Origin: Protoeuglena noctilucae
Lineage: Eukaryota
DNA length: 64,000 nt
Direction of reading: 5' to 3'
Assembly (NCBI GenBank): GCA_958009085.1
Contig: OY253678.1
Location: 868,001 to 932,000 of the forward strand
Every line of letters begins with the position of its first letter. The stretch's first letter is position 1. The translations under genes were made by a program, and so were the position numbers. Of this stretch, positions 10,064-64,000 are shown piece by piece. The notes below the pieces were generated by a model. It saw only the letters and a list, made by a program, of their open reading frames with translations, did not search any database and had not been told where the DNA came from.

Positions 10064-13000
10064 ATGTCTCGGCCTCGTGAGGTGACTCGCAGGCGTGCCT
10101 GTCGAACTGGAGCGCCACCTGTCATCCTTGCGCGCGACGCGTGGAGGTTCCCACTTATCTCGCGCGACTTCCGCGGGGATGCCTCGCCCCGCGATCGCTG
10201 CGATCGCGGAGGCACCTGTTCGCGCGCCTGGCACCCCTTGCGACGCGGCCCCCTGTGCGGGAGGGTCACAGCATCGTCGCCCCGCCGAGGGTCGACAGCC
10301 TAGCCCCCGCAGCGCAAGCGGGACTTCACGGCGGACCTGGCCGCTGCGCTTCGACCAAACGCGGCCGTAAATGTCCTCCAGGAAGCCAAGTGAGCCTCGC
10401 CCGGATCCCTGCTGGTATATCTCGGCCTTGCAAATCGGGCCCCGTCCTATGCACACCTCCCCGCGCGCTTGCCTCCGTAGGGCGTCTCTGCGGGAGCCGA
10501 GCCGACCCTTCACGCCGGCCGACACCGGGCGACGTCTCTTCGTGCAGCAGGAGTACAGCGATCGCCCGCAGTCGTCGTACGGCGTCAACAACCGCGCGCT
10601 GTTCGGCCCCGACCCCACCTCAGACGCCCTTGCGTCCCGTTTCGAGTCCCTCGCGTCCGTCACCCCCGCCGATGCGCTGCTGCTGTCCGCGCGGGTGCCC
10701 TCCCGGGGCCTCGACATGACGGGCTCAGATCCAGTGGGGGCGTCGCTCGCCAGGGGCCAAACGCCCTCGTCCCCCGCCAGCAGCCGCGGCCTCCCACCAC
10801 GCCCGCGCTCGTCCCTCCGCGGCGAGCTCACCTCCCAGGGCGGTGAGGGGCGGCTGCTGCGCTGACGTGCATAGTCTACCGCCCCTGCCCATAGCAGCCA
10901 CCCCACCCTAAGTCACCCTCCTCGGCCATCTCGCAGGTCTGTCCGGCCGGCTCGACCCCTCCGTGTCTCTGCGGGCGCCCAGTCCGTCGGGTGCCATGGG
11001 CGCGGTGTCATCAGGGGCGACTGCCCCGCTGTCGGCCAGAGGCCGTGCTGAGTCTGCGAGGGCTGGGTCCTGGGGCCAGGCGCAGGACCTGGCGCACGAG
11101 GAGCAGTACGTCGTCCCGGGCAGAGACCGAGAGCGGCCGCGCACGGGTGAGTCTGCCGCGCTCAGCCCTGCTGAGAAGCACGCAATGCGCTGCGTTGTCT
11201 CGATGGTCTAACGGGGTGCCACTGAGAGCGGCACGGCCTGGGGCGATGGAAGGTTGCAATCCGCTGCCGCAGGGTCCCGCGGGAGCCTGGGACACCGGCT
11301 GAGTGCGACGCTGGCTGTGGCAGAGGATGCGGAGGTGGTGACGGTGGACACGGACCCATGGGAGCCGGGCCTGGCGAGGCGCATGGAGGGCCTGGGGGTG
11401 ACGGCGTGGTCGGGGACGGTGCCGCGGGGCGCGGAGGACGAGGCGGGGGCGGCATGGGCCGAGGAGGTGGGGGGGCACTTGAGGGAGGTGCTGCGGGAGG
11501 TGCCAGCGGGGGCAGCGGGGGCGGAGGAGCTGGCAAAGACCATGGGAGCGCTGCGGGCGGTCGCGGCTTGCGTCGAGCGGGCGAGCCCTCTGCCCGAGTG
11601 GCCGCGGTGGCTCGCCCTGCCGTGCGCAGTTGTGGCCGCGCCGCCGGGCGCGGGGAGCGGCGAGGGCCGGGGCCCGGAGCCGGGGACGGTGGCGTGGGCG
11701 CTGGAGGAGGCGATGGTGTCGCTGACGGACCTGCGGCACCCGGGCGCGGTGGCGCGGGCGTGCGCGGTGCTGCTGCGGGTGTCGTCATCGCCAGAGCGGT
11801 GCCTGCAGGCGTGCCGGGTGCTGTTCCGGCTGTCCAAGGACGCCTCCGCGGACGCGCACTTCCGAGGGGAGGGTGCGCTCCCGCCTCTGCTGGGGCTGGT
11901 CGACGCGAGGGGTGCGGCGGTGGGGGGGCGCGGGCCGGACGCGGGGACGTGGGCCGAGGCGCTCATCTATGCGGTGGGGGCGCTGAAGAACGTTTCGCAG
12001 GACGTCGGGTGCCAGCGGGCGCTGCACGCCGCGGGGGCGCTGGGGGTGGCGGCGCGTGCTCTCGTGGTGGTCGGGGGGCGGGCGGGCGTGCGGGGGGGCG
12101 CCGAGGGCCCCGAGGGGCAGCGGGGAGCGCAGCTGGCGGTGCAGGCGAGGAAGTGCAAGTGAATGGGGTCTTTGTACTTTCTTGCACTTGTTCGTTGGAC
12201 CGCCAGGGGCTGCACAGCCCTTCTAGCTGACCCACACCATTCCCGGCCTTGCGTCACAGGTGGTGGGCATGCTGCGCAACTTGTCGGTGGTCGTTGCGCA
12301 CGCGAGGGACTTCGCGCGGTCGGGCGCGGTGGCGGGGCTGATGACGGCGCTGGAGAGCCTCCCGGGCCACCACGAGCTGGCGGCCAACGCGGCCCGCGTG
12401 CTCAGCAAGCTGTCGATGGTGGCGGCGTGCCAGGCGGAGCTCGCGGGGAGCGTGGCGTCGCTGGACCTGCTCTTATCGACCGCGGAGAGGTTCCGCGACG
12501 ACCGTTCCCTGGCCGTGCGCCTGGTCTTCGCGTTGGCAAATGTGACCACGACCAGCGACGCGGCGCGCGACGTGATGGCAGGGGTGCCGGGGGCGGCCGC
12601 GCGCGTCGCGGCGCTCGCGGGGCACTTCGCCGACGCGCAGGGCGGCGCGGAGGTGCTGCTGAGGCTCATGAGGTGGGGGCTGCATGTGGGGGCGTCAGGC
12701 AGGGGCTCGAGCAGACTCGCTTGTTCTGCATCCGCACCTTTGCATCAGTACCAGTAACCACCCCAGCGCTACCCTGCACTGCCCTATTCACATGTTGCCA
12801 GGTACATTGCGAACATGGCCATCCACCCCAGCGCAGCCCCGCTCACTTTCATGTACTCTCGCTTGCCATCCCAGGCTCATTGCGAATATGGCCATCCACC
12901 GTGATATGGGGCCTCAGCTGGCCGCGGACCCCACCGTGACCCGCGCCGTCGTCCACGTCCTGGCTGACAAGTCGCGCCCAGTCATCGACGAGCTATCCCT

Positions 13001-17263: not shown

Positions 17264-18392
17264 TCAGCAGCCAAGCCGCGACCCCATCCCACACCCCGAC
17301 ACTGTGCACTCGCTGTGCGTAAGGGTGCTGTCGTGGATGCTGCAAAGGCCGTAGTGCTTGCAGTTAGTGATCTCCACGCCAACCACCTCCGCATGACCGC
17401 CATCTAGACAGAGCACCCCGTGCAACTCCTTGGACCCCGTGATGCGGCCCCCATGCATGACGACCCTGCTGCCCTCGCAGCTACAAAGCACACCACAACG
17501 CCTGCAATCAGAGATCTCCACATCCTGGACCTCCGCCTGACCACCCCGTTGGCAGGACACCCCGTGACGATCCTTACACCCCGTGATGCGCCCCCCATGC
17601 ACCACCACCCTGCTACCCACACCATCGCAAAGTACTCCGCACTTCTTGCAGTCGTCAATCTCCACGCCCATCACTTCTGCCTGACCGCCCTCTTGGCAGG
17701 ATACCCCGTGCAGCTCCTTGGACCCTGTGATGCGCCCTCCCTGCACCACCACCTTGCTCCTGCAACCCGCACAGCACACCCCTGTCACAGGCGCATCCGC
17801 CACGTGCGTGTCCACCAGCGTTGCTTCCCCACCCCTCTCGCACCTCACCCCCGTCCCCACCATCCGTACCCCTTCCAGCCGCAGCTTCCCACCACTCCTG
17901 ACCCTCAATGCGTACCCCTCGCCCAACGGGGCGTCCGACACCCGCAGCGTCCCGTTGCGGATCGTAACCGCCACGCCAGCCCCCGCCACCACCACCTCGC
18001 ATTCAAGCTCCACCTCCCTGCCCCCCAGGTCCACCACCCCGCCCCTCCTCGCCACCTCCGCCACCTCCTCCCCCGTCGTCGCAATCACCACCTCTGCCGC
18101 CGCCGCATCTGCCCCGCCCCCCCGCTGTCCCGCCCTGCCCCCAGCCCGCTGCGCCCGCCTCCGCCTCCACGTCCGCCCACGCCAGCCCTGCCCCCCGCAT
18201 CTCCGGCAACCCCACCACCGCCTCCCACGCCGCCCGCCTCCGCAGCTCGCTCGGCTGCCCCAGCATGTACAGCAGCGCGACCCACTCCTCGTCCGTCCGC
18301 TCCGCACCCCGGCTCGCAGTCTCCGCCCCGCCCTCGCCCGCCCCCGCCTGCTGCGGCCCGGCCCCGCCTCCCACCCCTCGCCCCCTCTCCAT
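17264..18392 (-). CDS. Intronless right-handed beta-helix (pectin-lyase-like) repeat protein, short copy; +1 frameshift near 18120 (pseudogene or homopolymer error)
   Basis: 48-aa units of the form GVxCxxGGxAEVxxVEIxDCxxxGVLCxxxGSRVVVxGGRITGxKxxH. The N-terminus (MERG...EEWVALLYMLGQP) is in a different frame from the repeats. A C7 run at 18117-18123 corresponds to 6 nt (ctcccc) in the paralog. Confidence 0.75.
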
Positions 18393-24913: not shown

Positions 24914-27900
24914 TTATGCGCGTCGCTTGGCCTCCGCCACCACTGCCTCCAGCGATGCTGTCGCCCACTTGCCCCCGATCAGCGCCCGAATGGTCTGACT
25001 GGCCTGGTCAATCGCCAAGCTCACGCCACCGAGGGAGTACACAGGCAGACCCTCGTGCTGGCGACCGGGACGGGGCAGGAACTCGAACCCATTCTCAGTC
25101 GCGTACATCTCCAAAAGCTCACGCAACGGGGCAGGGGCCCCGTCCGGCTCGGGAGGCGCTGCGTCGGACGGCAGCGGCGGGGCTGGCGTGGCCTGGGGCG
25201 GCTCGTCCGCATCCCAGAGCGACGCCGGGCCGCGGGGGGCGGGGTGCGGGGGGGCGGCAGAGGGGACGGTATAGACGAATGGAGCGGCGGTGGCGGTGGC
25301 GGCGGTGCGGGCGGGGGTGGCGCGAGCGGCCACAACCCCCGCTTGCGCCGCCGCGAAGTGCCTCCGGATCGGCTCTTGGCTGGCGATGTCTTCTGGCAAT
25401 AGGCCCTGCCACCCCGCCAGCCATTGGACCACCTCGTCGTAGTTGGGAGATGCTCCCAGCCAGTGCTGGAGGACCTCGTGGATTTTGGGGAGCACGTGGG
25501 ACTCGAACAGGCGACCCAGCAGAGACGCGGAGAGCGTGCCGTGCCACTGTGTATGGGGGGGGGGGGTGCGTGGGGGTGTGTCAGTATCGGCATGAGTGCG
25601 CGCGTTTGTGTGATGGCGGAGACCGGCCTGGGGCACGCGTGCAGGCACGCGGCTAGCAAAACTTGTTCACTACATGTACACTTGCCACTGTGGTTTAGTC
25701 CCTACCCTCACATGTGTCCTAACCTGACCTCACTTCTCTCCACCACCACCCCCACCCCCGCACCCACCAACCCCGCACCCGCCATACCATTACCCATGCC
25801 ACATCCAGCGTCCCACGACATGCCAGTGTCACCTGCAGCGCCCACTCGACCGGCGCGAGGTCCTGGCTGGCGGGGTTGACGGCCATGGCATCGAGCGCAT
25901 ATGCGAGCTTGGGCATGATGCTGCGGTGCACGAGGGCCGCCCAATCCCTGGGATGGAACACCCCCGCCCAGGGCCGCAGCACGGCGACTGCGCTGGGATC
26001 GGAGGGGTGCCACTCGTGGAGAACGGCGGTGAGCTGGTGGCGTATGGCGGGGAACGACGCCTCCAATCGGTCCCCCAAATGGGGCAGCCAGGGGTGCGTC
26101 CAGCGGTGGAGGGGGACGGGGTCGGTGCGGGGGTCCCAGGCGGCGACGGCGGACTCGATCTGAGGGAAGGGGGGGAGAGGGGAGGGGTGTGAGTGATGTG
26201 AGGGGTGTGGGTGAGTGAAGTGGGGGGAGTGGGTGTGCGGGGGTGTGATGTAGCGATGGCGGACTCGATCTGGGGAGTGGGGGGAGGGGAGGGGAGGGGT
26301 GTGGGTGGTGTGAGGGGTGTGGGTGGTGATAGCGATGGCGGATTCGATCTGGGGGTAAGGGGAGAGAGGTGGGCGGTGGGTAAGGGTGGTGGTGCTGGAA
26401 TGGGAGTGGATAGGAGCGCTCATGATCCACATGTCAGCTTCTCTGCGCATTCTAGCTTCTCTGCATCCACACCCCCTCACCTTAAGCACACTATGCCATC
26501 CATCTAGACCAGTTAACCCCCCTCACCTTGGGCAGCGCCATGGACTGCAGCACCACGCCATTGGCATGTGACCATGCTCTCCAATTCTTTGCATCCACAT
26601 GACCCTCTCATTGATCTCACCTTGGGCAGCACCATGGACTGCAACACCATGCCGTGCATGTGACCCGGCATCGCCCCCTTCCACGCCTCCACCAGCGTCA
26701 ACGCCGCCTCGGGATCCCTCACATCCCACTCGGTCATCAGGAAAGCCCTTATGCGGGGCAGCACGCCCTCCTCGCAGACGCGGCAGCCGGGGTCCTCGGG
26801 GGCTCCGGGGAAGGAGGGGGAGGCGCTCATCAGGGGGAGCCACTGGGGTGGAGGGAGTGGATTGAGTTACAGTTTGTGAGTGGGTGAGTAACAGTGAGTG
26901 GGGCGGGGGAGTAACAGTGACTGGTAACAGTGACTGGGGTAAGGGAGCTGGCTCTCCCCAGCCCTACTTACCAATCCACCGCCCGACACCCCACACACCC
27001 CACCCCACCCCACCCCACCCCACCCCACACACCCCACCAACACCCCAACCCCCCCCCCCGCCCCTCACTCTTCGGAACTCCTCCGCCCCCCTGCCTGGGT
27101 CCTTCGCCACGTCCCAGTCCCTCAGCAGCGACCTCAGCAGCGGCCCAGCGAGGCCAGTTGCGAACGAGTGCAGTGCGAAGAGACGATAGTCGTCGGGGTG
27201 GCGGTGGCGGGCGTCCGAGAGGGCGGCGTGCATGGCGGCGAGGGTGGCGGTGGGGTCGTCAGCTGGTGAGGACTGCGGGGGCGCGGGTGGTGGGTGGTGG
27301 GTGAGAGTGGTGGGTTAATGGTGGAGGAGGAGAGGTGGGTTGGTTGTGGTGGGTGACAGGAGGGTGGGTGATGGGTGAGAAGGATTAAGTGAGCACCTAC
27401 ACGCGCTCTCACACCTTTGCCAGCACCATGCATCCATGCGCCCACCCACACATGCTCCCTCACCTTTGCCAGCGTCATGCACTGCTGGCATGCCACCTGC
27501 AGGTGTTCCCGCACCCGCAGCTCCCTCTCCACCTGCAGGGCGACAACGAAAAGAGAGGCACTGAGTACTGAACCAGACATAGTCACAGTGCTCGATGCGA
27601 TGCGGATCCTGTCCACGACGCCCACCACTCCCTTCCCTCCTTTCTCTCATCATCACCACTCACCCACTACCACCTACCGTCACTCTCTCTCACCTCCTCC
27701 ACCTCCCCCCCCGGCCTCTCCCTCTCCCTCTGTTCACCACTACTCATCACCCTCTCTCGACCATTACTCATCATTACACACCCACCACCCCTCCCTCACC
27801 TCCTCTACCTCCCCCCCCAGCCTCTCTCTCTCCCTGGCCAGCACCTCCATCGTGTCCTTCTGATGACGCAGACGAGCGTCCAATCGCTTCAGATCCGCCT

Positions 27901-30900
27901 CCGCCAAGTCCACAAGCAAAGTGATGTTGTGGCGGAGCTGAGGGCAAGGGGTGAAGGGCATAGATGGTCATGTTGAAGCGGGGCTGCGGGTGGGGGTAAG
28001 GGCACTTCACACTCCCCATATTGTGCAGGAACCCATGCCACGCACTGCTCCGATCCATCTGCATTCCTTTCCCTCACTGCCTACGCATGACCATCTCTCT
28101 CCCCCTCTCTACTTCCCTCACCTCACACCTCAATTCCCCCTCACCTCCCATGCCACCCCACTCCTCTCCTCTCTACCCCCACCCCTCCCTCTCACCTCAA
28201 GCGCCACCCCACCTCTTCTCAACACACTCTAACCCCTCCCCTCTCTACCCCCCCCTCACCTCCGGTGCCACCGCGTCTGTCCCTGCCCCCTCCCCCTCCC
28301 CCTTCGGCCCCTCCAGGTGACCCAGGTCCGTCACCACCCTCGCCCGCGGCCCACGCATGTCAATGACCGTGACGGAAGGCGCGAGACCAGCCCCCTCTTG
28401 CTGACGCAGTAACTCCTCCGCTGCGGGAGACGCGAAGAGTCGATTTTAAGTCACAATCAAGTCACAATAACGCTGTTCATCACAAAAAGTTTTGGGCTAA
28501 GGAGTGAGCATTGAGAGGGCTGATTAAGGACCAACTCTGGTGCGGAAACACCCGCTCGTCTTCAACCCACTCGTCACTGCGCCAACACACCAACCCCATG
28601 CGCCCCTCACCTGTCCTGTACTCCCTCTTCCCCGCCCCCTGCTCCGCCACCCTCCCCACTGTCCCAACATAGCACATCACACCCCATATGTCCCTCACCT
28701 GTCCTGTACTCCCTCTTCCCCGCCCCCCGCACCACCCCCCTCACTGTACTAACACACCAACCCCATGCACCCCTCACCTGTCCGGTACTCTCTCTTCACT
28801 GCCCCCTGCTCCGCCACCCTCCCCACTGTCCCAACATAGCACATCACACCTCATCTCACTCACCTGTGCGATATTCTCTCTTCACTGCCCCTTGCTCTGC
28901 CACCCTCCTCTTCCACGTCTTGGGACGCGCCTTGGCGTCGCCCTTCCCGGGGGCCGCCTCTTCTGTGGGTGTCTGCAGGGAAGGGGAGAGCACAGGTGAG
29001 TGAGTGAAGTAGCGAGAAGTGACTATGGGGCACTCTCACTTTCACCACGCCACTCTCACTCTCACCCCCACCCCCACCCCCACCTCCTTTTTGGCCTTCT
29101 CCACCAACTGGTGCTCACCCTCACTCTGACCCTCACTCTCACCCTCGCCCCCACTCCCATCCCCACCCCTCACCTCCTCTTTGGCTTTCTCAACCAACTG
29201 ATGCTCCTGCCCCGCGTACCCCAGCCCCATCTGATTGGGCCGCATCTTGACCTCAATGGCGCGAGCTATGCCCGTGCGTTTCTTCCCAAGGCCCTCCCCG
29301 GGGCGATAGCCCATCTGGGGGCAGCAAGGAGTGCATGGGGTTGCATGTAACTATGAGTAAAGTGCGTGGGATTGATACAGGGTGCGTGCGCGGAAGTGCA
29401 AAGGGACGTGTGCATGTGAGGTGGATGGCAGTGTAAAGTGTGCATGCGGTGCAGGGGTGCATGCCAGCAGCTAAGACACCACGCCCACGACAGTCGCCTT
29501 TCGCCAGCACCCAAGACACTACACGGCACGCACCGTGACAGTCACCCAGTCGTCACCTTCGCCAGCAGCTTCGATCCGATGCCTTTCGAGTACTTTTCGA
29601 ATCCCCCCAGGTCCTTCCACTCCCCCTGGCCCCCTTTCACGTTCGTGCCCTTGCGATACTCGGCATCCTTGGCAGCCTTGCGGCGCTCCTGGGGTGACGG
29701 AACACACGCAGGCCAGGTCCTATGCTGCCACTGCCACGGAGTAAGCGTCAGCAGTCGGTCATGCTCACTCTCACAGCATGGGCGTCTGTGGTCGGGCCAG
29801 ACCGTCACTCCCACAGCCTAAGCCTATGCATCCAGTCAGCCTGTCATCACCACACCCTGCCAAACCCCCCCCACTCGCCTCGGCTGCCCGTTTCAAGCGT
29901 CGCCCGAACGCCGTCTTTTCCAAAGCATCGTCGTCTTCCTCATCCCCACCACCCTCGCCACCCCTTGCCCCGATCCCTCCCCTCGCTGCACTGGTGCCCG
30001 CCCCAAGTCCCCCACGCCCACTTCCTGCCGCCTCCGCCCATCCGTCACCTCCCGCCCCTAGGCCCAGTCCCCCTCTCTGGAAACCCTCCATTTCTCCCTC
30101 GCCATCCCCGCTCACTCCCTCCTCCCCGGTACTCCAATCCCGCGATCGCTTGGACCCTGCAGCACCACACCGGCACCATCAGTTTAAATTGATAGGCGCC
30201 CGTGATGATCCCAAGGCAATCACCACAGAAGGGTACTTTTACAACATGCCACACTCCCCGCCATAAGTATGAGCAATCAACTCTCGTCACGCCCCTTTGC
30301 TTCGCTCCAAATGCCCCTCACCTGCATGCACCGACCCCGCCCCTTCACTGGCCGACGCGCCGCGCTCGTTCCCGCGACCCTTCTCGTCCCCCGCGCCGCC
30401 ACCGACATGCCCCTGCGATCAAAGACACAGAGAGGCGCTCAGTACCGAGCCCGCGGGGCGCGGCACAGCGCCAGCCACAACAGGCAACACCACGCGCCTT
30501 GCTGACGAACGCGACGGGCGCCGAGTAGTCCGCCTTCTTGTGCCGGCGGCCCCGCTCCCCGCCGCGCGCATCGATTTCATCGTCCGAGTCGGTTCCCGCA
30601 AACACCCTGCGGCGGATGCTCTCTTAGGAAGTTGAAATCGACCCTCCCCAGCGACCCATCCCCAGCCCATCTGCCGCGCCCGCAAGCGCTCCCGTGGTTC
30701 ATGCAACGCGCGCATAGCAACGTACCCGTAAAGCTGCTGGTCCCGCGTCTGTCGGCCCTTGCCCTCTCGCTTCCGCTTGTAGAAAAACTCGTCCCCAATC
30801 CTGCGCAGCACGCCGGGGCTCAGCTCGGTGCGGGCCAGCGCAATCGACGAGGGGCTTCGCAGCAACAAGCAGATAAGCAAGGCGATGCCCACGCAGGACA

Positions 30901-41140: not shown

Positions 41141-44100
41141 ATGATTCGCGACCCGGTGGTGGACGCTTCCTCGGCCCCTGGCATGCGTTTCAGCTTGGGC
41201 CGCCTCCGCAGCTGGCTGCCGCAGTCCCTCGTGGGCAGGGTCATCAAGCCCAACCCGGACGCGCGCTCGCGGGACGCGGACGGCAACGGGGACGAGGACA
41301 GCATGTCGGTCGACCTCTCACGTGAGACGTGCCGCGCATCGTCGCGTGCCTGCCCATGCCAATGGCCACCATTGCCATCCCCACCGGCCTGGAGGCGTCA
41401 CGAGCAATGCGAATTCTGCTACCTTTCCTCTGTAGAGTCTGTCTTGCTCTTGCAAATGCCCCGCCTCGCTCTCTCAGCTCTTTGACCTCCTGCTCCTGCT
41501 CCCGCTCCCCTCCCCAGACGGCCCCAACGCCCCGCCCCGCCCCGCCCAGCCCTCGGAGTCCCCCCAGGGCCCCAAGGACGGCAGCGCGGTGTCGAGCCAG
41601 ACGGCGGGGTGGACGGTTTCCAGCGTCGCCTACACCCCCACGTCTGGCGTGGACATGCTTCGTGCTACGGCGTACGCGCCAGTGAACGAGCTCTCCTCGA
41701 AGTCCAAGCCGTCGCTGGAGTACCAGCCCCCGCCGGGCGCGGCGCTGGCGTGCGCCCCGCAGGACAAGGCTCCGTCGAACGAACACTCGCCCGTGCTGCA
41801 GATGGTGGGGGCGGCGGTCGACATCCCCCGCAAGGTCCCGTGGCCCTGCGTGTCGACGCGGTGCCCCCCTGCGATGCGCGACGCGCCCGTGGCGTGGACG
41901 GCGGCCCGCATCCGCCGCCTGTTCCCAATCGGCAAGGGCTTCATGTCTGAGGTGTACCACGCAGTCGACACGGCCTCGGGGACGCAGGTGGCGCTCAAGG
42001 TGTACGACAAGTCCAAGGTGAGACTGGAGGGGTGGTGCTCCCGCCAGCAGAGCAGCGTCTTGTTCTTTCCGCATACGCACCCCGCCCACCCACACGCAGC
42101 CCCACACCCCCACCGCCACCCCCACTGCCACCCCCACCCACCCACACCCCCACCCCCTCCCTCACCCTAGATGCACCGCCGCGACGTCGACCAGGTGGAG
42201 GAAGAGGTGGCCATCCACATCCACCTCACGCACCCCAACATCCTGGGCCTCTACGCGGCCTTCGCGGACGCCCAGCACCTCTTCATCGTGCTGGAGCTCG
42301 CGTCCGGGGATGATTTGTACAAGCGCATGTCGCGCATCCCCGTCTCGGAGCCGCTCATCACAAGGAGGTTCCTGCAGCCCATCCTGTCGGCGCTGGAGCA
42401 CTGCCACGCACGGGGCATACTGCACAGGTGAGGGAGAGGGTGGCAGTGAGTGAGTAGATGGGTTGCCCGCCGGTTGTCCTTTGCATACATTCCATGTGCT
42501 TCGTAACGCCCTCGCACCCGCCCCCCACCCGCACCCACCCTAATACCCCCCCCATCCCCCATCCCCCCAGGGACCTGAAGCCCGAGAACGTGTTGATGAT
42601 GGAGGACCAGACGTGCAAGCTGTGCGACTTCGGCTTCTCGATCAACACGGGCGTGCGTCGCCCCGTGTCGCGGCTGGGCACGCTCGACTTCATGGCCCCG
42701 GAGATCGTCATGGCGGGGAGGAAGGCGAGTGATGGTAGTGATTATTGATGGTTGATATGCGAGATGGACAGGATTAGAGGGATGTGACGGTGGCAATCAC
42801 CCACCTCCCTGCACCCACTAACACCACCCCACCCCTCACCCCACCCCCACCCCACCACCCCCCACACCCCTCCCACCACTCTTCCTTCACCCCACCTCAC
42901 CCCCCCAGCACCCCACCTCACCCCACCCCCACCCCACCTCTCACCCAGCACCTGGACGGCGTGAAGGACGAGGTGCACAACGACGCCGACAACTACGTCC
43001 CCAAGAGCGACCGCCCGTCGTACACCTCCGCCGTGGACGTGTGGGCGCTGGGGGGCGTGCTGTACGAGCTACTGGTGCGCGTCACCCCTTTCGCGTCTCA
43101 ATCCAAGAACCGCACCATGCGCAAGATATGCGGGGGGGAGCTGGTCATACCCGACACGCTGTCTCCGGAAGCGGCGGACTTCGTCAGGCAGTGCCTGAGG
43201 GTGGACCCGGCGGAAAGGCCCTCGTGCTCCCAGCTGCTCGCGCACCCGCTCGTCGCCAAGCACTGCCCGGAGGTGGCGGCGGCGGCGAGGGAGAAGCTCG
43301 CCATGGTGAGGGACGGGAGATGGGAGATGAGGGATGAGTAGATTGAAGAGGTGTGGTGATTGGGTGAAGCGTGTATATGTGATGGGAGATGAGAGGTGAG
43401 TGGCGGCGGCTGTTGGGGAGAACTTGCCATGCTGAGGGACGGGAGATGGGGGTGGGATGGATTGAGTAGGTGTGATGAGATATGAGTTGGGGTGAAGCGA
43501 GTAGTGAGGTGATAAGGTGTAAGCGTAGTTGTCAGTAAGCCTATCCAGTCCCACTCCCGCCATCAGCTCACCCTCACCCTCACCCCCACACCGCCCACCC
43601 ACCCCCCACACCCAACACCCCACCCCCCACCCACAGGACGCCCTCTCCGGCCCCATGTCCTGGGCAGTCTCCGCGTCGAGCAGCGGACCCACCAGCAGCG
43701 GAGTGAGCGCCGCCCACGGCCCCACCCACGCCGTCCGCCCCACCGCCCCCGCCCCCGCCCCCGCCCTCCAGCACGCCCCCACCTGGGCCCCGCGCCTCGT
43801 CAATGCCCCAGGCAGCTTCCCCGCCCCCGCCCCGCCCTCCCCCGCCGCCCACTCGCTCCACCAGCGTCCCCCGCCCCCGCTGCTACCCACCATCGAACCT
43901 CGCAGTCCGGTGGCGTCGCTGGGGGGCTCCAAGTGCCTCTCCCCCGTCGCCCCGCCTCCCCGGCAGTGGGGCCGCGCCGCCACGCGATCGATGGCGCCGT
44001 CTGAGGTGATGGGGGACGTGCCGGCGTCGCCTGTGGGCGTCAGCAGCGGCAACGGGGGCGGCTTTGGGGCGGCCCACGCCGACGAAGTTGGGGGGTTCCC

Positions 44101-45607: not shown

Positions 45608-45708
45608 GCTGTGCAGAGGAGCATGGGCGCTGTGCAGACAAGCATGGGCGCTGTGCAGCTGTGCAGACAAGCATGGGCGCTGTGCAGCTGTGCAGACAAG
45701 CATGGGCG
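45608..45708. repeat. Short tandem repeat (CTGTGCAGACAAGCATGGGCG, about 4 copies)
   Basis: Directly visible 21/29-bp periodicity in intergenic DNA. Confidence 0.85.
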
Positions 45709-46044
45709 ATGTCAAACAATCATTGGCTTCACAACAGCTAGTGCCGTCATACAATTGCATCTAAATCGAATTTGAAGCAGCGGATGTAGGTAACGAGGTG
45801 AGGTGAGCGTGTCTGCACTGTCCACACAAGGCCGGTACATGCCACAGCGACCTCCACGCAACATGAAACACACGGCAGCGCCTCCCTTGCCATCCTTGAT
45901 ATCGGCCGGCACATCACTGCTGCGGGGACGGACGCGGGACGCCTCAGGGCACGCGGCTGCGCCCCTGCCCACCACAGCGCAGGTGAGGATGGTGACGCAC
46001 ACCGTCGCATCTCGGGCTCACCTCGAGGCGCCAAGGGTCCCCGC

Positions 46045-49262: not shown

Positions 49263-49387
49263 GATGCTTCGTGTCCCCATGCGTTTTCACATCCCCGCTC
49301 ATCTCACGCCCCCTCACTGCAGCGACACTGTCAGCTACGCGGCGCCCTCGCCCCCAGCTATGCAGCGCCCACTTTGCCCACGCCCCC

Positions 49388-52300
49388 TCACTGCAGCGAC
49401 GCCGTCATCGCTGCCGCGTGGCTCGTGAGCATCTCCATGGCCTGGTCTGCTGCCGCACGCGCGTACACCGCCGAGAGCCACGGCCGCACCACCCTGTAGA
49501 CACCCAGGGGAGCGACAAACACGTCAGATTGTAACCATTGCAATGTGTCATATCCTTTTCCCGTCCTTATCACAACAACGGTGGACACGTCACGCCCCGA
49601 CCAGTGTCTTGTCCTGTGTCCCTATGTCCCACACCCACCGCCTCACCTCTCCGCAACTGTCCCCTCCACCTCTCTCGCCCCCACCCACCCACCCAACCAC
49701 CGCCTCACCTCTCCGCGGCCGTCCCCTCCACCGCCCCCTCCACCTCTCTCGCCGCCTCCGCCAGCCGCCCACGCGCCAGCGATGCCCGCGCCCTCCCAAG
49801 CGCCCCCTCCACCCCCGCAGTTGCCGATCCCAGACGCAAAGATGCAGCCACTCGACCCAGCCAGGAGGCGAGAGGGCCCGGAGCCGGGGAAGACGATGGC
49901 AGGAGGATGAGGGTGCTGGGGAGATGGGGTGGTGGGGTGGTGGGGTGAGGGAGTGAGGGAGAGAGAGGGAGTAAGGGGGGTTGGGCGAGATGGTAGGGGT
50001 TGCGCTGCCAGGGGTTGCGCTAGCGATGAGGGAATGGCGGGAGGAGTCTCACGTAAGCGACAGAAAACGCAGCTATGCTACTTCACTGTTCACGTCACCG
50101 CATCTCCTCTCCTACTCCCTCACCCAACCCACTCACCGCATCTCCTCCCCCACCATCTCCAGCTCCTTCATCAGCTCCGCGTGAGTCGCCATGCCCCCCC
50201 GCGCCCCCGCCATGTCCTCGAGCGTCGGCCTCAGTGCTGCGATCACCGGGTCCGTGGGCGCCAGCAGCAGTAGGGCAGAGACGTCCGCCCGGGTCGATCG
50301 CCCCGCCTCCAGGGAGGCACGCAGGGCCAGGGAGGCGTGGGACAGGCGGTGGACGTAGTGGGAGTAACTGCGAAAGGGTTAATAGCAAGGGATGTCAATG
50401 TGGTGGGAATAACTGCACAGGGAGGCGTGGGAGAGGCGGTGGACGTGGTGGGAGTAACTGCGGAGAGCAATGTGAGGGACAAGGGCGGTGGGTGTGGTGG
50501 GAGTAAGTGACTGCACAGAGTGATGCATGGGACAGACGGCGAGCGTGGCTGGGGAGCGCACGATCGAATGAGAGATAGAGTGGGGTTGACAAGCAATTGC
50601 AAGCCCCAGTCGCAGTCACAGTGCACCTCTGGTCATCCGACCGCCTCTGCAGTGCCTCCACCATCGCATGCACCAATCACAGCCAATCATAAACACACCT
50701 CTGGTCATCCGACCGCCTCTGCAGCGCCTCCGCCAGTGCGTTGGTCTTGGCCCGCAGTGCGTCCACCCCTCTGGCCATCTCTGCCCGCTCCGCCAGCGAC
50801 CGCTCGCTCCACTGCAACTGCGCGCGTGCCGCCTCCTCTTCGACCCTCGCGGTGGCCACCGCCTCCAAATGGGACCTGGAGATGGGAGTAGAAGAGAGGA
50901 GGAATAGGTGAAGAGGCATGGCGATTATTGGGACCTGACGATCGGAGCAGGACAGAGCAAGGGGCATTGGCAAGTCCGCCTGCGCTCGCTCTTCATGTTT
51001 CCATGTCCCACCGCTCTCGCCTCAATGCCGCCGCACCAGTCCCGCAACCCTACTCCCACCCCCGCCACCCCACTCCCACCACCCCACTCGCACCGCCCCA
51101 CTCCCACCACCCCACTCCCACCCCTACCACCCCCGCTACCCCACTCCCACCACCCCACTCCCCCTAAACCCCACACACACCTGAGGTCCTTCGCAAATTT
51201 CCTGTACTCGTGCCTCTGCCTGTCGTACTCGTCCTCCAGGTCCGCGATGTACCGCGCCGCATCCGCCAGCATGCGCTCCCGCTGCTGCAGCGCCCACTGC
51301 ACCTCCGCCACGCGCTCGGCCACCATCGTGGAAAGGGCGCCGGAGATGCCCTGGATATGAGAAGGGAAGCAGAGCGAAGCCACAAGTCATCGTTAGAAAG
51401 AGGGAGGTGAGAAAGTGGCTTAAAGGTCGACACCGATACCCACGTTGCGCCCATCCCAGCCCACCTGCCACCGCCACCGCTACCCGCGTCACACCCATCT
51501 CCCTCCCCCAGACCCCCTCACCTCGAGTGCTTGCTGGAACTGCTCCCTATCGCTCTCCGCCTGCCCCATCATCACTTCAAACGCTCGCCAGTCGTCCCTT
51601 GAGGCGACGCCCTTTGCCTTGGCCGCCTCAACCAATGCCTGCACCGACAGCTCGGCTCGCTCCCGCAGCCTCGCCTCGGCACCCACGTCGCGGGCGGCGC
51701 GGTTCGCCACGCGACGCACCTGCGGGTCAGGGATCGAAAGGGAATGGCCTTACGTGTTGCGAGCCGTGTGCGGTGTAACCCCACTCCATGACGTCTCATT
51801 GCATACCGACTTGTTAAAAGAGAAAGGGTTTGCACGGAGATACCAAAAGCAACCTGCGCCATGCCCTCTGTCTGCATCTCTTCTTTAGAAAAAAGCAGTG
51901 CCCCACATCACCCATCAACCCCGCCCCGCTCACGTGTGCCGGCACAGGCGGCATCTCCTCCACCGCGAAGTCCGCCTCCCGCCGCGTCTCTGGCTCTTCC
52001 GGCTCCAACTCCGGCAGACGCACGCGGCTCAGCGCAGCGATTGCCGCGTCTCTTGCCGCCTCCGCCTCCGCACCCGCACCCGCACCCCACGTGCCATCCT
52101 CCCCCCGCTCTGCGCCCGCGCCCTCTCCCGCCCTAGCGTCCGCAACCTGCGCCGACGCATTATCTTCGTCCCCTGACCCCTCCTCCGCCCCTCCGGCCTT
52201 CGACACCTCTCCCACTGCCCCCTCCACTCCCTCCCGTGACATGCGCATTGCCTCCGCCTCTCTCCCTCCCCCGTCGTGCGCCAACAGCGCCTCGCTCCAC

Positions 52301-56400: not shown

Positions 56401-59400
56401 GGTGCGGGGGTAGCATGCGTGTACCTGTTAACTGTGCGGTGATGGTGGTTGTGGTGGTTGTGGTGGGTGGTTGTGGTGTGGGTGGGTAGGTAAGAGAGGG
56501 TAAAGTGTTGGTGTGTAGAAACGAGGTGTGGCTGCGGGGGGGCTCTCCAGCCCCCTAGTCTTTTTTACTGCCTCACGATAGGAGATCGCCACTCCCACCG
56601 CAGGGCACCGAGCACTTCCTGGCGCTGTGTCAGTTGGTGGAGGACAGGTATACTGCGATATTGGCAAAGGGCGAGGAGTACGTGGCGAGGATGAGGGGGG
56701 AGATTGAAGACAGTGATAGCGAGAGCGGCATGGACAGCGACAGCAATGCCGATGGCAGCAGCTGCAGGGTGCGGGAGATCAAGGTGAGAGGGGAGGAGAG
56801 GACTGCAGTCGCGTCCGCTTTTGACGCTGCCGCGCTCACCACACCACACCGCCCATCGTTCGCACGCGCACCCTCGTCCATCGCCCTTCACCCACTCCAC
56901 CTCTCGCCCTCACTGCCCCCTCCTGCTCCCCCGCAGGACATCAAGGTCCAGATCAAGCCGTGCTACCGCCATGGCGAGCCCGACTCCATCTTTGTGTACG
57001 AGGGCAGCTTGGACGGGGATGGCGATGAGGGAGAGGAGGATGGGCTGGGCGACGAGGAGGGCGAGAAAGGGGCTGGGGGGACGGCTGCGGTCAGGAAGGG
57101 CAAGCCCGAAATTTGGGAGATCGCCAGACCCACCGAGTGAGAAGGGGAGGGGTGAAGGGGCGGCGAGGGAACGTGCTTTGGTTGATACCGTGCTGTGCGA
57201 TGCATGTGGCGGAGTGAACGTGCTCTGGGCAACAACTCACGCATTTGATCATCCTCACGTCTCATGCCATCCTCATATCTCCTTTTGTGCAACACAGGAA
57301 GAAGCATTTCGAGCTCATGTACCTGGTCGCCTGGGCCGGCGAAGACGCCAACGGTTACCCCCACGCCGACACATGGCTGCCCGAGAGCGTGGTCAATGCC
57401 CCTCAGCTCGTCGACAAGTGTGTGGTGCGGATGGTGGAGGAGCTGCGCATTCCGACTCGGGGGACGGTCGACGTCATCGCCGGTGGCCCGCCCTGCCAGG
57501 GCATCTCGGGGCTCAACAAGAATCGCAAAACCTGCGATGAGATTGAGAACTTCTTCCGGGTGGTGGACGAGGGTGAGGGGCTGCATGGGGTGGGCATGGC
57601 ATGCTATGGTGTATGTGATGTTTAGTTTCGGTGGGGTGAGGGCGGCGGGGCATACGCGATGTGCATGGGGTGAGGCCTCACCCCACCCCGCCCCACCCTC
57701 GCCCCTCTACCCCGCACCTCCACCGCTTGCCTCAACCCACCCCTGCCACCCCATCCCACCGCACCCTGCCCTTGCCGCCCCACCCCATCCCACCCTCGCC
57801 CCTCCCCCCAGACCCCCGCAACCGCCAGGGCCCCGTCTTCTGGTCGATCGTTGAATGGTTCAAGCCGTCGTATGCATTGATGGAGAACGTTGTGGATATC
57901 GTCAAGTACAAGGGTGGGACCTACCTCAACTACTGCCTCGTCAAGGTCCTGGGCATCGGGTACCAGGCGAGTTGGTATTGAGGTTTTGTTGGTGCTGGTA
58001 TCGGTATCGGTATCGGTATTGGTATTTGTATTTGTATTGGAGTTGGTGTTGGTGTCAGTGTTGGGCACCGCATATGTCACCTCGTGCCAGTGCATGTTTC
58101 ATGGCACGTGTTCCCGCATCTACCCATCCACATGTAACCCCACACCCCACCCCACCCAGCGCAGTGCCGCGTCGGCTGCCTCACCGCGGCGCAGTTCGGT
58201 GCGCCCCAGGGCCGCGCCCGCATCTTCCTGGTGGCTGCAAGGCCCGAGGAGGCATTGCCGCCCATGCCCCTCCCCACGCACCGCCCTTGGTTTGACACAA
58301 CGATCAACCTGCCCCAGGCCGTCAAGCAGTGCTTCATGGTGAGTGAGGGTTTGGCTATGTGGACGACAGCACTGCTCAGTACCAGTGAAATGGTGAGCGG
58401 GGTTGGCGCCAATATTGACTTGCCGACAGCCGTCCAACAATGCGCCGTGATGAGCGGGTGTGCGGTTATTTAGATAACAATGGTTGACAGGGGCGTTACA
58501 TGGCGTCGCAACAAAACTATCCCAACATAAGCCCCTCCTCACCCCAGAGATAAAGAAATGACAGGATGGTCTGTGTAAACCGTCTGACTCCACCTCTTCC
58601 CCCACTCATGCAGAAATACGAGAATCTGTCTCCCGATATTTACTCGCAACTGTGGGATCCGGTGCTGGTGGGGGATGCCCTCACCGACCTGCCTCCGGTG
58701 GACAACTGGAGGCGAGTGCGACTGTGACGGGGCGTGGTAGAATGTGACGTGGTAACATGGTCTGATATGATGGTATGTTGGTGCAGCGTGCTACGGTGCA
58801 TGTCGCAGTTTGACGCATGCCACCCCACGCCATCCACCACCCGAACCCAAGCCATGCACCACCCCACGCTATCCCTACGGACACCCTTACTGGCACGATT
58901 TGCATGACCCTTAGGTGACACTATTAGGGTTACCGAGTAGTACTCGGTAACCCTAATATAGTCAGTCGACATTGCCCGCCGCCCCTCACCCCGCCCCGCA
59001 CCCCCCAATAACCCGCAGCATCTCTGAGCACCTCCCGTACGCCCGCCCCCCGCAAACGCCCTACCAGCGCTACATGCGCCGCCCGCCGCCCAGGCAAGCC
59101 CAGCAATGCGTGTGGCGCTTTTGTGTTCTCTCCTAGGCACAGCACCCTTCACTGCGCATGCGCAGCACCCTTGTTGTCGATCAATTCATGTCGTTGCCAT
59201 TCTCGTCGTCACTGTCACTCTCGTGGTAACCGTCACTGGCATTGTCATGGTCATCGTCACTGTACCGTCACTCTAATTATCGTTGCCATCGTCATCGCAA
59301 CTCGCTCCCCTTTCGCGCAGGGATGCTGCCAGCTTGGAGTCCCGCCTGTCACAGGCTGACCCCCACCTCCGCAGCCAGCTCGACGCCATACGCAACGCCG

Positions 59401-62400
59401 TCAACTCGATGTGAGTGGCCGGGGTGGACGTTAATCGATTGCTATTGGATCAGTGTCAGTCGAAGTGCATGTGAATGGGTGTGGATGTGTTAGTGACTTT
59501 AAAAATGGTATCTTTTTCATTAGCTTCTCATTAATGTCTCTCTTGCTCTTTCTCTCCCCGCAGATCCACGGAAGCTCTGGGCCTGACGCAGACCACCCGG
59601 GGCGCCAACAGCAAGTGGGAGGAGTACGGGGCGGAGCGCATCGCGGGTGAGGGGGTGGTGGGCAACCGCAACAGCGGTTGATGTGGGAGGAGCATGTAGC
59701 TGAGCCGATCGCCGGTGAGGGGATGGGATGGGGTGGAAGTGGTTGATTGAAACTGACACAGTGCGTGACTCAGCATTGCTTGCTCTGCCGTATCATCATC
59801 ACCCCACCACCCTGCCACTCCACCACTCCACCACTCCCTCACCCTCACCCCACCCCACCCCACCACCACCCTCACCCCACTCCACCACCGCCACTTTGCC
59901 ACCCTCACCACTCCCCACTCCCCCCCTCACCCACTCTGCCACCCTTGCCCCCACCCCCGCAGCCGCATCGCAGCTGCCCCACTACTCCACCCACACACTC
60001 CGCCACCCTCACCCGACCCTCGCCCCCACCCCCGCAGCCGCTCGGCTGGACCAGAGCAAAGCTTTGGAATTGCAAGAGGAGAAAGATCAAGAACTCCAGC
60101 AGCCGAAGAAGCGGCAGCGGGTATCGAAGGCAAAGGGAAAGGGAAAGGGAAAGGCAAAGGCAGGGGGGGGTGCGGGGTCAAGGGGGGGGGATGGGGATGG
60201 GGTGGGGCAAAGCGGGGGTGGTGGGGATGGGGTGGGGGGTGAGGGGGTGGGGGATGGGGTGGGGAATGGGGCAGGAGATGGGGAGATGGGAGAGGAGGAG
60301 GAGGATCAGGACGCAGCGGCAAAGTTTGCAAACGAGGTGAGGGGTGGTGGGGTGTTGATTTGAATCCTCACACGTTTCAGCACCCTCAACATGCAGACCC
60401 CCACACCCTCGCACCCACACCCACACCCACACCCACACCCACACCCACACCCACACCCACACCCGCACCCACCTTGTGACTGCCCCCTGTGTTTTGCAAG
60501 CCTCTCACCTCGCAGCTCTCTCTCCGCAGGTGTACGCCACCCACATCCACCACGTCTGCAGCCAGGTGCCCAATGCGAGTGGCGTGGTGGAGGCGGGCAA
60601 GGGCGGTTACATCGACAAGTGAGGGAGCATATGGACATGGACGCAGATTACATAATGTTGCATATGATGGTACATGTGATGGAGCCTTTTCTCACCCACC
60701 CCACACCCTCGACATCCATTCACACCCACCCCATGATCGCTTATTGCCCCTCACCACCCCTTGTCACCCAACCCCACTCCCCATGCTAAGTAACCCTGAC
60801 CCACCCACTCCCTCACCACCCCTCGTCACCCACCCACTCCCTCACCACCCCTTGTCACCCATCCCCACTTCCTCACCACCCCTCCTCACTCCCTCACCCA
60901 CCCCCTCTCCCCCGCAGCTGTGTGGGCCTCTCTTGCACCCACGAGGCCCTCTTGCTGGGCCAGCAGCTGAGGGAGAGCGTGGCGAGGGAAGAGGAGGCGG
61001 CGGAGAGACGGGAGCGAGACAGGGAGGTGAGGGGATAACTGTTCTGTTTGCAGTAGTAGTTATATAGTGGTTACATAGTAATGGTTGGTCACGGTAAGGT
61101 TACAGTAAAGGGGGAGGCTGAAGAGGAAGTGGCAGAGAGACGGGAGCAAGACCGGGAGGTGAGGGGGTCTGTGGAGAATGAGAGGGGTGGGGAGGTGTTT
61201 AAGAGCGCCCTTTCACGCCTCACTGCCACCCTCGCCCTCACTGCCACCCTCCACACCCACCCCACTCACCCCAACCCCCACCCCCCCGCAGCTGCGCCTG
61301 CTCTACACCGTCCAATCCCACCGCCCACTCACTCTAAACATCGAAGACTATCTGCGAGTGTGTGCGGTGCCGAAGAGGGCGCCTTACGAGTGCGGGGATG
61401 ACGAGCGCGCGAATAGGCTCTATTACAACTTCCGTGACATGCCGGGGGTGGTGAACGGGGAGGGGAAGTCGGTGTGCGTGGGGCACTGGTGAGGGAGTGG
61501 TGTGGGTGTGGGTGTGTGTGCGTGGGGCACTGGTGAGTGGTGAGGGGGTGGGTCTGTTGATGTGTGGATGTGCGTAATGCACTGGTGCGGGTGTGGGTGT
61601 GGACGTGGGTGTATGTGCGTGTGTGTTTTGTGTGGGTGGGTGTGCGTGGGGCACCAGCCACCCTCGCCCTCGCCCTCGCCCTCACCCTGACCCTGACCCT
61701 CACCCCCCCCCCCCCCCGCCCCAGCCACGCCCCCATCACCTTCACCAAGCACAGAAAGACGAAGGTGGTGACAGAGCACGTCCCCTGCCGCTCCCGCACG
61801 CGCATCGTATCTCTCACCTGGAAGCGGGGCATGGCGCGGCCCAGGGTCGACATCCGCGAGAAGTGGGTGAGTGGGTGGGGATGGGCATGGATGGGGATGG
61901 ATGGGGGGAGGTGAAGGTGCAGTGCTGCAACCGGGGGTGTGGCGTGTACTGGCATCACAGTTGCACTTCACAGGGACAGATTACAGTTGCAGCTTTCCAT
62001 TGCCACGCGCCTCTCTGCCCACACCCGGGCGATTGCGACCCTTGCCCCCGCCAACCCCGCTCCCCACTCCCGCCCACCCACACCCACCCACAAGGCTACC
62101 CACTCCCCGCCACCCGCAGACTTTCCGGTGCACGGGCGCCCGCTGGTGCATGGCCTACACAGTGGTGAGCGTCATGTACTATGAACCTCATGCAATGCAT
62201 GCAACCGTAAGCTAGCGTCGATCGTTGCTCCGTCGGTCCCAGTCATTGCCACCCCTCTCTCTTCCCACCCCCATTGCCACCCACTCTTCTCTCTTCCCAC
62301 CCACCTGCCCCTCTCCGCGGCTCCTCCCCACCAACAACCCCTCCCTCACCCACCTATCACCCACACCCACACTGCTACCCACACCCACACCCACACCCAC

Positions 62401-64000
62401 CCCCCCACTCTCAGTACCTCCCCACCGCCGGTCTCCTCGTCACACGCTGGCTGCTCACCTTCCTGCGCGGCAAGAGCGGCGCCTCCCGCGGCCGCCAGTC
62501 GCCCTACGGCCGCCTTTTCTGGGACTGCCAAATGTCCACGGTGGTCACTAGAGCGGAGCCGCACAACCTGCAGCTGCTGCACCCCACGCAAAACCGAGTG
62601 CTCACGGTGCGGGAGATGGCGCGACTCCAGGGATTCCCGGACTATTTCGTCCTGCTGTGGGGCTCGGTGGAGTATGGGCCGTCGCTGGTGCGGTCGGCGG
62701 TGGTGCAGGACAGGTGAGGGGTGGGTGGGTGGGTAGATTGGTGGTTAGTGGTGGGGGTAGTGGTAAGGGTTGTAAGGGTGCTGGGGTGCAGGACAGGTGA
62801 GGGGTGGTGGGTGATGGCGAGGGTGGGGGCTGTGGTGGGTGGTGGGGGTAGCATTGGCGAGCTTTTTAGTAGCAGTGGTGAGGGTGGTGGTGGGACTAGC
62901 GGTGGGGCGAGGGCCGCCGTTCCCGACTCATTCCACACAATTAGTGTAATTTCCTCTCACACACCACTTCCCCTCTCTCTCCCAGGTACAACCAGATCGG
63001 CAACGCCGTGAGCCCCCCCGTGGCCACTGCGCTGGGCATCTGCATGCGGGCGGCGGCAGTGGGGGTGGCGCCGCACGGGGCGGGGGCGTCACCCTGGATG
63101 AGGGCGGTGGACCCGGAGAGGTGGGTGGGGGGATTGATTGGTGACTGGATGGATGAATGTATGAGAGAATGGTTGTTGTTGAGTATTGCATGGGATGGGG
63201 TGAAATGGGGGTGGGGTGTGTAGCCTGCCCCTCCGCCCTCTCTCCCACCACGCAGTGCGTGCGATGCGCCCCTCAACAACCCCACTCCCACACCCCACTC
63301 CCACCCCCACTCCCACTCCCACACCCACACCAACTCCCACCCCACACCCACACCCCACACCCACCCCCACTCCCACTCCCACACCCACACCCACTCCCAC
63401 CCCACACCCCACCCCGCCCGCTTCCCCAGGGTGCGATATGAGAACGACCGCGCCACTAAGAGCTTCTTCAGAACTCACATTCTGGAGAAAGGGGTCACGT
63501 ACATGGACCCATGGAGCAAGGCCACGGTCATGGCCAGGCTGGGGGACGACTACGTGCCGTGAGTGGTTGGATGATAGTTTACGTGTAATATAATTCATAT
63601 ATTAGATTTACTTTATGCTATAGTATACTAGCACTAAGCGCCAGTGTACGGATGTGATGGCGAGGCTGCCCACCGCCCACCCCCCACCCCCCTCGCAGTC
63701 ACATCAAAATCCGCGACTTTGCGCGGCTGTGGGCGGGGGTGTACCGGGCGCGGGGCGACGAAGGGCGTGCGCGCGATATGGAGAGACTGCTGGGGGTGTT
63801 TAGGGGTGCCGAGAAGCAGGTTGTGGTCAAGAAGGACCTCGAAGCACTGTGGGCGGATAAAGAGAGGTGAGGGGCGGGTGTGGGTGGGTGGTTGAGGGGT
63901 GAGGGGTGGGTGAGAGGTAGGTATGGGTTGTGGGGCGATGGGTGGGGTTGGTGTGGGTGCAACCCCCACTGCCACCCCTACTACCACCCCCACTACCACC
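53491..64000 (+). CDS. CMT: Chromomethylase-type DNA (cytosine-5) methyltransferase (BAH + chromodomain inside the catalytic domain); start uncertain, 3' end probably beyond the window
   Basis: BAH-like [27 protein letters not shown]. Motif I MLDLFS|GCGGLS. Chromodomain YLVAWAGE...DTWLPES. Motif [37 protein letters not shown]. Then PYGRLFWD...[27 protein letters not shown] and [14 protein letters not shown]. Confidence 0.92.
58916..58964. repeat. Perfect palindrome with 18-bp arms and a 1-nt spacer, inside a CMT intron
   Basis: TATTAGGGTTACCGAGTA-G-TACTCGGTAACCCTAATA (58922-58958), extended by TGAC/GTCA after a 2-nt mismatch. Confidence 0.9.
60411..60472. repeat. (CCCACA)n hexamer microsatellite in a CMT intron; a related CCCAC[A/T] array lies at about 63282-63415
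   Basis: Directly visible in the sequence. Confidence 0.9.

Follow-up and report, generated by a model that had tools for sequence, protein, structure and literature searches.

Copies of splice junctions inside introns of Protoeuglena noctilucae as probable remains of short tandem duplications

In a 64-kb stretch of DNA from Protoeuglena noctilucae (GenBank assembly GCA_958009085.1, contig OY253678.1, positions 868,001 to 932,000; hereafter the window), the introns of five genes contain degenerate copies, or echoes, of their own neighboring exon edge together with its splice site. The echoes are probably what can still be recognized of ordinary tandem duplications of short units (62-132 nt) that by chance took in an exon-intron junction. 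Such a mechanism is standard; it is present here at high density, with 15 junction-spanning events over ~180 modelled junctions in 64 kb, or ~8% of modelled junctions.

RNA contigs from three metatranscriptome runs prove four clean introns (eight junctions), all of the GT..AG type and all in the minus-strand coiled-coil gene of the window; the loose-end sequences of these contigs have no match in the window and hence yield no extra junctions. Continuity of homologous proteins backs three more junctions that adjoin echoes (26621 to 26159 in the TFIP11-like gene, and 62713 to 62986 in the CMT-type DNA methyltransferase gene, hereafter CMT). The remaining structures come from a dynamic-programming gene model using codon log-odds, GT-AG borders, frame tracking and iteratively trained splice matrices; the model recovers 8/8 of the RNA-proved junction coordinates. 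Tiny exons were dropped and one donor was hand-corrected, which gave 91 introns with a median length of 181 nt; the modelled donor consensus is AG/GTGAGGG, and the acceptor is a C-rich tract followed by CGCAG at the exon border. Outside the events with RNA or homologue backing, 10 events have junctions placed by the gene model only.

The echo pairs quoted in the initial annotation of this DNA, including the TFIP11 and CMT sites, are all present when the window is aligned to itself with blastn; compared with the gene model, the junction-spanning events number 15 (11 donor and 4 acceptor). The five genes named in that annotation are those that hold the junction events, with a tally of one in the ARM-repeat gene, six in the TFIP11-like gene, one in the second protein kinase gene, three in the coiled-coil gene and five in CMT. 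The copies are offset by 62-132 nt, and the extra copy is on the non-coding side in every event found. The reported association with long introns also holds: no echo was found in the RPT3-like, DHDPS, KH, enoyl-CoA hydratase (ECH) and first-kinase genes, where introns are short, and introns with an echo are about one unit longer than the rest (median 266 nt, n=10, vs 171 nt in the other 81).

The specificity of the echoes is seen when the 40 exon-only nucleotides beside each junction are compared with the adjoining intron, splice-site bases excluded. At a score of at least 15, 9/87 donor-side edges and 3/87 acceptor-side edges match their own intron, while far exon edges and exon middles, serving as controls, do so in 0/76, 0/75, 0/70 and 1/68 cases; the adjacent edges match the other 90 introns in 1/7830 comparisons for donors and 5/7830 for acceptors. 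As controls and other introns almost never reach a score of 15, the matching is peculiar to the exon edge next to the intron and lies far above chance. Chance similarity or an assembly artefact is extremely unlikely as an explanation; low-complexity introns, G-rich at the 5' end and C-rich at the 3' end, do inflate short matches, however exon-only edges match other introns in just 6 of 15,660 comparisons. The copies differ by 5-25%, unlike those of a collapsed or doubled assembly, and contigs from another run (its kind is not on record; it is possibly the source sample) cover 49062-52774, 56449-60119 and 60477-61576 without differences, seven pairs included.

The unit of duplication is larger than the conspicuous part of the echo. 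In a fixed-offset, ungapped view the similarity consists of 12-50 nt of exon and 3-19 nt of intron and then ends, with the copies 62-132 nt apart; copying of the exon edge and consensus only, with an uncopied spacer, as by templated insertion or a long target-site duplication, was a candidate that gapped alignment and the other-intron null overturned for most events. When gaps are allowed, the spacer that separates the copies can be aligned, indels included, with the sequence lying past the echo; relative to windows from other introns this spacer duplication reaches p<0.05 in 7/10 donor events (Fisher's combined p 3.8e-8), and in 8/14 events at most 3 of 300 shuffles reach the score. Since the spacer is duplicated too, the repeated thing is the whole unit; the 20-50-bp junction piece described in the initial annotation is present, but it is not the sole repeated part in most events.

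The events are listed below with positions in the window and strand; identities are those of the self-blastn, and p refers to duplication of the spacer.

12798..12900, plus strand: ARM-repeat gene, acceptor event; true acceptor and exon head 12871-12900, echo 12798-12827 (90%, offset 73) inside intron 12673-12874; modelled junction; the exon-only edge scores 20.5 in its own intron vs a best of 11.0 in any other.
26143..26354, minus strand: TFIP11-like gene, acceptor event; true acceptor and exon head 26143-26213, echoes 26253-26325 and 26330-26354, offsets 110 and 79; the echoes at 26253-26354 are non-coding, because homologues go directly from 26621 to 26159.
26522..26665, minus strand: TFIP11-like gene, donor event; true tail and donor 26616-26665, junction 26621/26620, echo 26522-26573, unit 92-94; spacer also duplicated, p=0.0026; homologue continuity; echo donor score 9.8 vs 7.0 for the real donor.
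27685..27835, minus strand: TFIP11-like gene, donor event; true copy 27791-27835, junction 27800/27799, echo 27685-27729, unit 106; spacer duplicated, p=0.006.
28574..28908, minus strand: TFIP11-like gene, 88-nt tandem array of ~3.8 copies; in the direction of transcription the first unit contains the last 45 nt of exon 28864-28972 plus its donor, and later copies are intronic.
29063..29206, minus strand: TFIP11-like gene, donor event; true donor GAGGAG/GTGAGG at 29174/29173, unit 90, echo donor AAGGAG/GTGGGG at 29084/29083, in frame and without a stop; the homologue alignment stops at 29168-29198, and the true donor is here a modelled choice.
43273..43450, plus strand: second kinase gene, donor event; true copy 43273-43324, modelled junction 43305/43306, echo 43400-43450 (86.5%), unit 127; spacer duplicated, p=0.004; echo donor GT changed to CT, score 3.2 vs 7.8 for the modelled real donor.
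49305..49407, minus strand: coiled-coil gene, pair at the stop codon and 3' untranslated region (3'UTR), no intron; a 29-nt piece at 49379-49407 spans the stop codon, echo 49305-49333, 74 nt downstream in the 3'UTR.
49635..49732, minus strand: coiled-coil gene, donor event; true copy 49697-49732, junction 49709/49708, echo 49635-49670 (91.7%), unit 62; echo donor identical to the real donor.
50328..50462, minus strand: coiled-coil gene, acceptor event; true acceptor and exon head 50328-50372, junction 50367/50368, echo 50418-50462, offset 90, within a 45-nt periodic array at 50328-50506.
50624..50735, minus strand: coiled-coil gene, donor event in the same intron as the preceding acceptor event; true copy 50696-50735, junction 50699/50698, echo 50624-50663 (95%), unit 72; spacer duplicated, p=0.014.
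59615..59726, plus strand: CMT, donor event; true copy 59615-59658, junction 59646/59647, echo 59683-59726, unit 68; spacer duplicated, p=0.028.
59941..60041, plus strand: CMT, acceptor event; true tract 60016-60041, modelled exon start 60038, echo 59941-59966, offset 75, with just 4 nt of exon included; the modelled exon 60038-60336 has a doubtful 3' end.
60988..61166, plus strand: CMT, donor event; true copy 60988-61034, junction 61026/61027, echo 61120-61166, offset 132; 85-nt AT-rich spacer without a detectable second copy.
61473..61621, plus strand: CMT, donor event; true copy 61473-61524, junction 61488/61489, echo 61569-61621, unit 96, inside a 44-nt periodic G-rich array at 61472-61621; spacer duplicated, p=0.029.
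62702..62813, plus strand: CMT, donor event; true copy 62702-62731, junction 62713/62714, echo 62785-62813, unit 83; echo donor identical to the real donor; spacer duplicated, p=0.012; RNA pieces of two runs end at 62715, and homologues are gapless from 62714 to ~62975.

The divergence of the copies was pooled over the 10 donor events, with the exon part set against the spacer. In the exon part, 306 positions align (269 matches and 37 mismatches) and 3 columns are gaps (1%); in the spacer, 365 matches and 85 mismatches stand beside 139 gap columns (24%). A spacer substitution divergence of 18.9% corresponds to 9.9% for one lineage, from which 30.4 mismatches are expected in the exon part; as 37 are observed vs the 30.4 expected if the echo copy alone is free to change, the echo decays like neutral sequence. 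What keeps the exon-derived part recognizable is the constraint on the true exon, together with the small number of indels that the echo gathers. The offsets have no in-frame bias, with 4/10 donor units being multiples of 3, as by chance.

A simple course of events would produce this pattern. An ordinary tandem duplication with a 62-132-nt unit would take in an exon-intron junction by chance, giving the order exon tail, donor, spacer, tail', donor', spacer', with the acceptor side as the mirror image; one such duplication would have grown into the 3.8-copy array. The copy contiguous with the exon would still be spliced, leaving the mRNA unchanged, and the other copy would become added intron; duplications wholly within exons would be purged by selection, and for this reason the extra copy would always lie on the non-coding side. 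The exon-derived part and its splice consensus would stay visible through the constraint on the partner exon and the complexity of its sequence, while the intron part, G-rich or C-rich, would drift in both copies and lose register through indels. This agrees with the earlier suggestion of a local duplication process that lengthens introns and leaves splice-site-like copies, the extra copy being kept only on the non-coding side and adding one unit to the intron; the mutational process (slippage, unequal exchange or break repair), the identity of the derived copy and the cost of a decoy are matters of inference.

The initial annotation had also allowed for a duplication process focused on splice junctions, which is not needed to explain the events: the whole unit is duplicated, a placement null fits, and repeats are comparably dense in intron interiors. 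For the null, 26 curated events (15 junction, 11 intron-internal) were dropped at random in the modelled introns under the sole condition that the extra copy lie wholly in intron; with whole units, the null puts 16.5/26 at junctions, against 15 found (P for >=15 is 0.80). Tiles of 40 nt are flagged as locally repeated in 33/261 donor-spanning, 14/344 acceptor-spanning and 107/1477 intron-interior cases, and the local-repeat density of intron interiors is comparable to that of junctions. A similar density away from junctions, named in the annotation as the mark of generic slippage plus selection, is thus essentially what is found within the window. The echo pattern at the stop-codon/3'UTR boundary shows the same survivorship where no splice site exists; both of its copies are in the mature mRNA, because one RNA contig spans 48959-49495 unbroken.

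Mutation aimed at junctions could arise from breaks close to the 5' splice site that are linked to transcription or splicing, or from template switching primed on the G-rich donor consensus or the C-rich acceptor tract, which would copy the exon edge into the intron. Such a process is unlikely. It would fit the end of ungapped similarity 3-19 nt beyond the junction in most events, but this short similarity is partly the mere shared consensus GTGAGGG; it would also fit the two events without a duplicated spacer, however exon-edge-only copying does not predict the spacer duplication seen in 7/10 donor events. The excess of donors over acceptors, the limited exon share of the unit and a null for short repeats with a spacer (all three quantified below) speak for junction-aimed mutation, and against it stand the fit of the whole-unit null and the occurrence of the same pattern at the stop codon.

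Several results weigh against ordinary duplication of whole units as the source of the echoes. The spacer of CMT 60988/61120 has no duplication (p=0.80) and is the clearest exception to the whole-unit model; that of coiled-coil 49697/49635 has no significant duplication (p=0.20), and that of TFIP11 29174 is borderline (p=0.06). Such events may be duplications that were partial from the start, or ones altered afterwards by indels. The exon share of the unit is <=0.58 in all 10 donor events, for which a uniform model gives a post hoc probability of ~0.004, and donors exceed acceptors 11 to 4, which is not significant (two-sided binomial ~0.12). A null in which a short repeat flanks a unique spacer expects 9.1/26 events at junctions rather than the observed 15 (P=0.011), and this expectation rises to 11.4-13.0 if constrained copies are detectable over 1.5-2 times longer. 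The lists of 15 and 11 events were hand-curated with low-complexity arrays merged, which leaves the intron-internal count uncertain; most junctions rest on a gene model built by the authors. The basis is one 64-kb window; a metagenome scan for relatives that could polarize the events gave one locus (GC 42%, with a 13-residue match), which is not a relative.

It is improbable, taking the donor excess of 11:4, the exon share and the two to three spacer-less events together, that they reflect duplication tied to the 5' splice site, with breakage or template switching in the G-rich donor region of transcribed genes as its possible cause, or strong decoy donors selected as decay-coupled regulators. 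If this were true, the genome would be a natural system in which to study how introns grow and how the spliceosome passes over a perfect decoy at a distance of 60-130 nt.

Repair of staggered double-strand breaks, by which a direct repeat of 26-55 nt would flank filler DNA as proposed for new or young introns of Daphnia, is quite improbable as the source of the echoes. The arrangement of repeat, unique spacer and repeat fits CMT 60988-61166 with its 85-nt AT-rich spacer and may fit 49635-49732; in all, short repeats flanking unique sequence fit one to three events. In the Daphnia study, new introns carry direct repeats of the exon end at their far end, with internal direct repeats in 55/90 (PMC4202315). 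Both cases have in common that the neighboring exon end recurs within the intron and that introns grow by successive local events. However, the exon-shared repeats in Daphnia are 4-12 bp long and flank inserted sequence, whereas the repeats here are 26-88 nt and what lies between them is usually duplicated; no source of filler is seen in the window, where the spacers match only low-complexity sequence elsewhere. A transposon or introner family was rejected as a source, as the 14 spacers compared with the whole window on both strands have only low-complexity or same-array matches.

The initial annotation had further proposed that echoes seed alternative or decoy splice sites; this stands insofar as splice-site-like copies are left behind, but use of the copies is absent from RNA contigs at one intron. 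The RNA contigs of three runs prove the true sites 50367 and 50699 and join them across an intron that has echoes at both ends; no echo-site use is found in them at this one checkable intron, although contigs miss rare or decayed isoforms. From RNA contigs and homologue continuity together, the true sites are used at five junctions. Scored with the trained matrices, 6/10 echo donors reach at least the median real donor (6.4), and 4/10 are weakened, one of them by the GT to CT change; 3/4 echo acceptors are above the median real acceptor (7.4), and the echo acceptor at 50457 outscores the true site (8.6 vs 5.1). Use of the echo donor would lead to a frameshift or stop in 9/10 cases, with only TFIP11 29084 in frame and open. 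Judged from their sequence, echo donors are plausible decoys.

It is nevertheless very unlikely that selection retains the echoes because they work as alternative or decoy splice sites, for instance by adjusting expression via unproductive splicing. The strength of the echo donors and acceptors is in keeping with such a role, and a frameshift or stop in nine of ten cases is the expected design of a decay-coupled decoy; however the exon-derived part diverges like one neutral lineage, four of the ten echo donors are weakened, and the RNA contigs contain only true sites at the checkable intron. The echoes offer introns in which two identical donors, or two identical acceptors, occur naturally, and these can serve to test the rules of splice-site choice.

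The echoes also mislead gene finders. The gene model first put a false 18-nt exon on a donor echo at 26527-26544, and first ran TFIP11 exon 6 through both copies (29066-29173) to a third donor at 29066; automated annotations of the genome may carry similar echo-caused errors. Near the kinase event (43274-43287), contigs of two RNA runs match the window as far as 43287, inside a GGC repeat, and continue into sequence that is absent from the window; this break at 43287, upstream of the modelled donor at 43305, could stem from differences between strains, from a paralogue or from a chimeric contig.

Gao and Lynch reportedly described, in 2009, internal (partial) gene duplications that extend across exon-intron boundaries. 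These are said to resemble the present events in that a short tandem duplication within a gene copies a splice site, of which one copy works and the rest is spliced out; the echoes differ in being small (62-132 nt) and dense, and they lengthen existing introns and create none.

A model in which introns arise when an exon segment bearing AGGT is duplicated in tandem (the Rogers model, with an in vivo test by Hellsten et al. 2011) is covered, alongside break repair, in a review of intron-gain mechanisms (PMC3443670), and Drosophila cases of intron sliding and tandem duplication have been described (PMC2891723). In such gain, as presented there, a tandem duplication gives a second splice site with the mRNA unchanged, and nonsense-mediated decay is invoked as a buffer; the model differs in predicting intron ends that copy the opposite exon edges at an offset of the intron length, whereas the echoes are inside older introns. 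Birth of the present introns in this manner was rejected, as similarity of intron ends to opposite exon edges is absent among modelled introns >=80 nt. Only introns of 45, 46 and 68 nt among the 91 scored, where the windows physically overlap, and the best of the remainder is 10.5 vs a 99th percentile of 11 for unrelated pairs.

A related setting is that of Chlamydomonas reinhardtii and Volvox carteri, for which a genome-wide study reports that tandem repeats in introns are overrepresented close to intron-exon junctions (Zhao et al., G3 2014, PMC3887541). These GC-rich green algae share with the window a very high density of intronic repeats and, in the portion of the study available, an excess of repeats towards intron ends; that portion counts intronic repeats by relative position and proposes a role in splicing, and it does not describe copies of exon edge plus splice site. 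Introners, transposon-derived intron families, also add intronic sequence in algal genes according to the available text (PMC9860276), however the spacers here form no repeated family and have only low-complexity matches within the window. The claim that the pattern had not been described genome-wide therefore holds in part: junction-near tandem repeats are reported for two green algae and the duplication model is standard, but exon-edge-plus-splice-site echoes were not found to be described as a counted genome-wide class in the literature searched, in so far as its texts were available. The window provides a quantified example of intron growth in a GC-rich alga, in which each surviving junction-spanning duplication adds 60-130 nt and a splice-site look-alike; the echoes form a simple clock-like record of recent small duplications.

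The window has ~66% G+C and densely packed, intron-rich genes, and its exons are present in marine metatranscriptome runs. Green-algal proteins are among the best relatives of two genes, the TFIP11-like gene (53%) and the methyltransferase (54-66%), for the latter of which the top matches overall are plant and algal chromomethylases; no near-identical protein was found in a large protein collection for the two genes searched (best 55% and 66%). The gene map is based on codon-score segments and a Pfam scan of 140 segments, and by these the gene names given earlier hold in outline:

2.3-4.5 kb, minus strand: protein kinase (first).
6.0-7.7 kb, plus strand: RPT3-like AAA ATPase.
10.4-14.5 kb, plus strand: ARM-repeat gene.
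24.9-31.1 kb, minus strand: TFIP11-like gene, with TIP_N, G-patch and GCFC domains.
In the window: KH/WW gene, DHDPS and ECH.
41-44.5 kb, plus strand: second protein kinase.
49.4-53.1 kb, minus strand: mitofilin-like coiled-coil gene.
54.3-63.9 kb, plus strand: CMT-type DNA methyltransferase.

The introns are strongly strand-asymmetric, with runs rich in G (GGTGAGGG, GGGTGG) following the donor and runs rich in C (CCCAC, CCACC) preceding the acceptor; examples are at 26975-27064, 42824-42947, 51028-51162 and 60180-60297, and the introns hold numerous arrays with a period of 5-30 nt. Tandem Repeats Finder returns 99 rows of tandem repeats in the window. Gly/Tyr-rich coding repeats with a 15-nt period (GCCGCCGTAGCC type, plus strand) at 8086-8685 and 33790-33966 sit in a RanBP-zinc-finger gene and the KH/WW gene; this is coding low complexity unrelated to the echoes.

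A segmental duplication of ~1.84 kb with 88% identity links 17356-19162 and 47430-49267. It contains a 144-nt satellite, with 3 units at 17356-17787 and ~11.6 units at 46136-47802, where there is a higher-order period of 285 nt, and a minus-strand open frame at 17792-18401 and 47863-48471 that has no Pfam match. An intergenic tandem array at 45593-45727 is composed of 21- and 29-nt units with 88-98% identity, and again points to active tandem duplication of short units outside genes.

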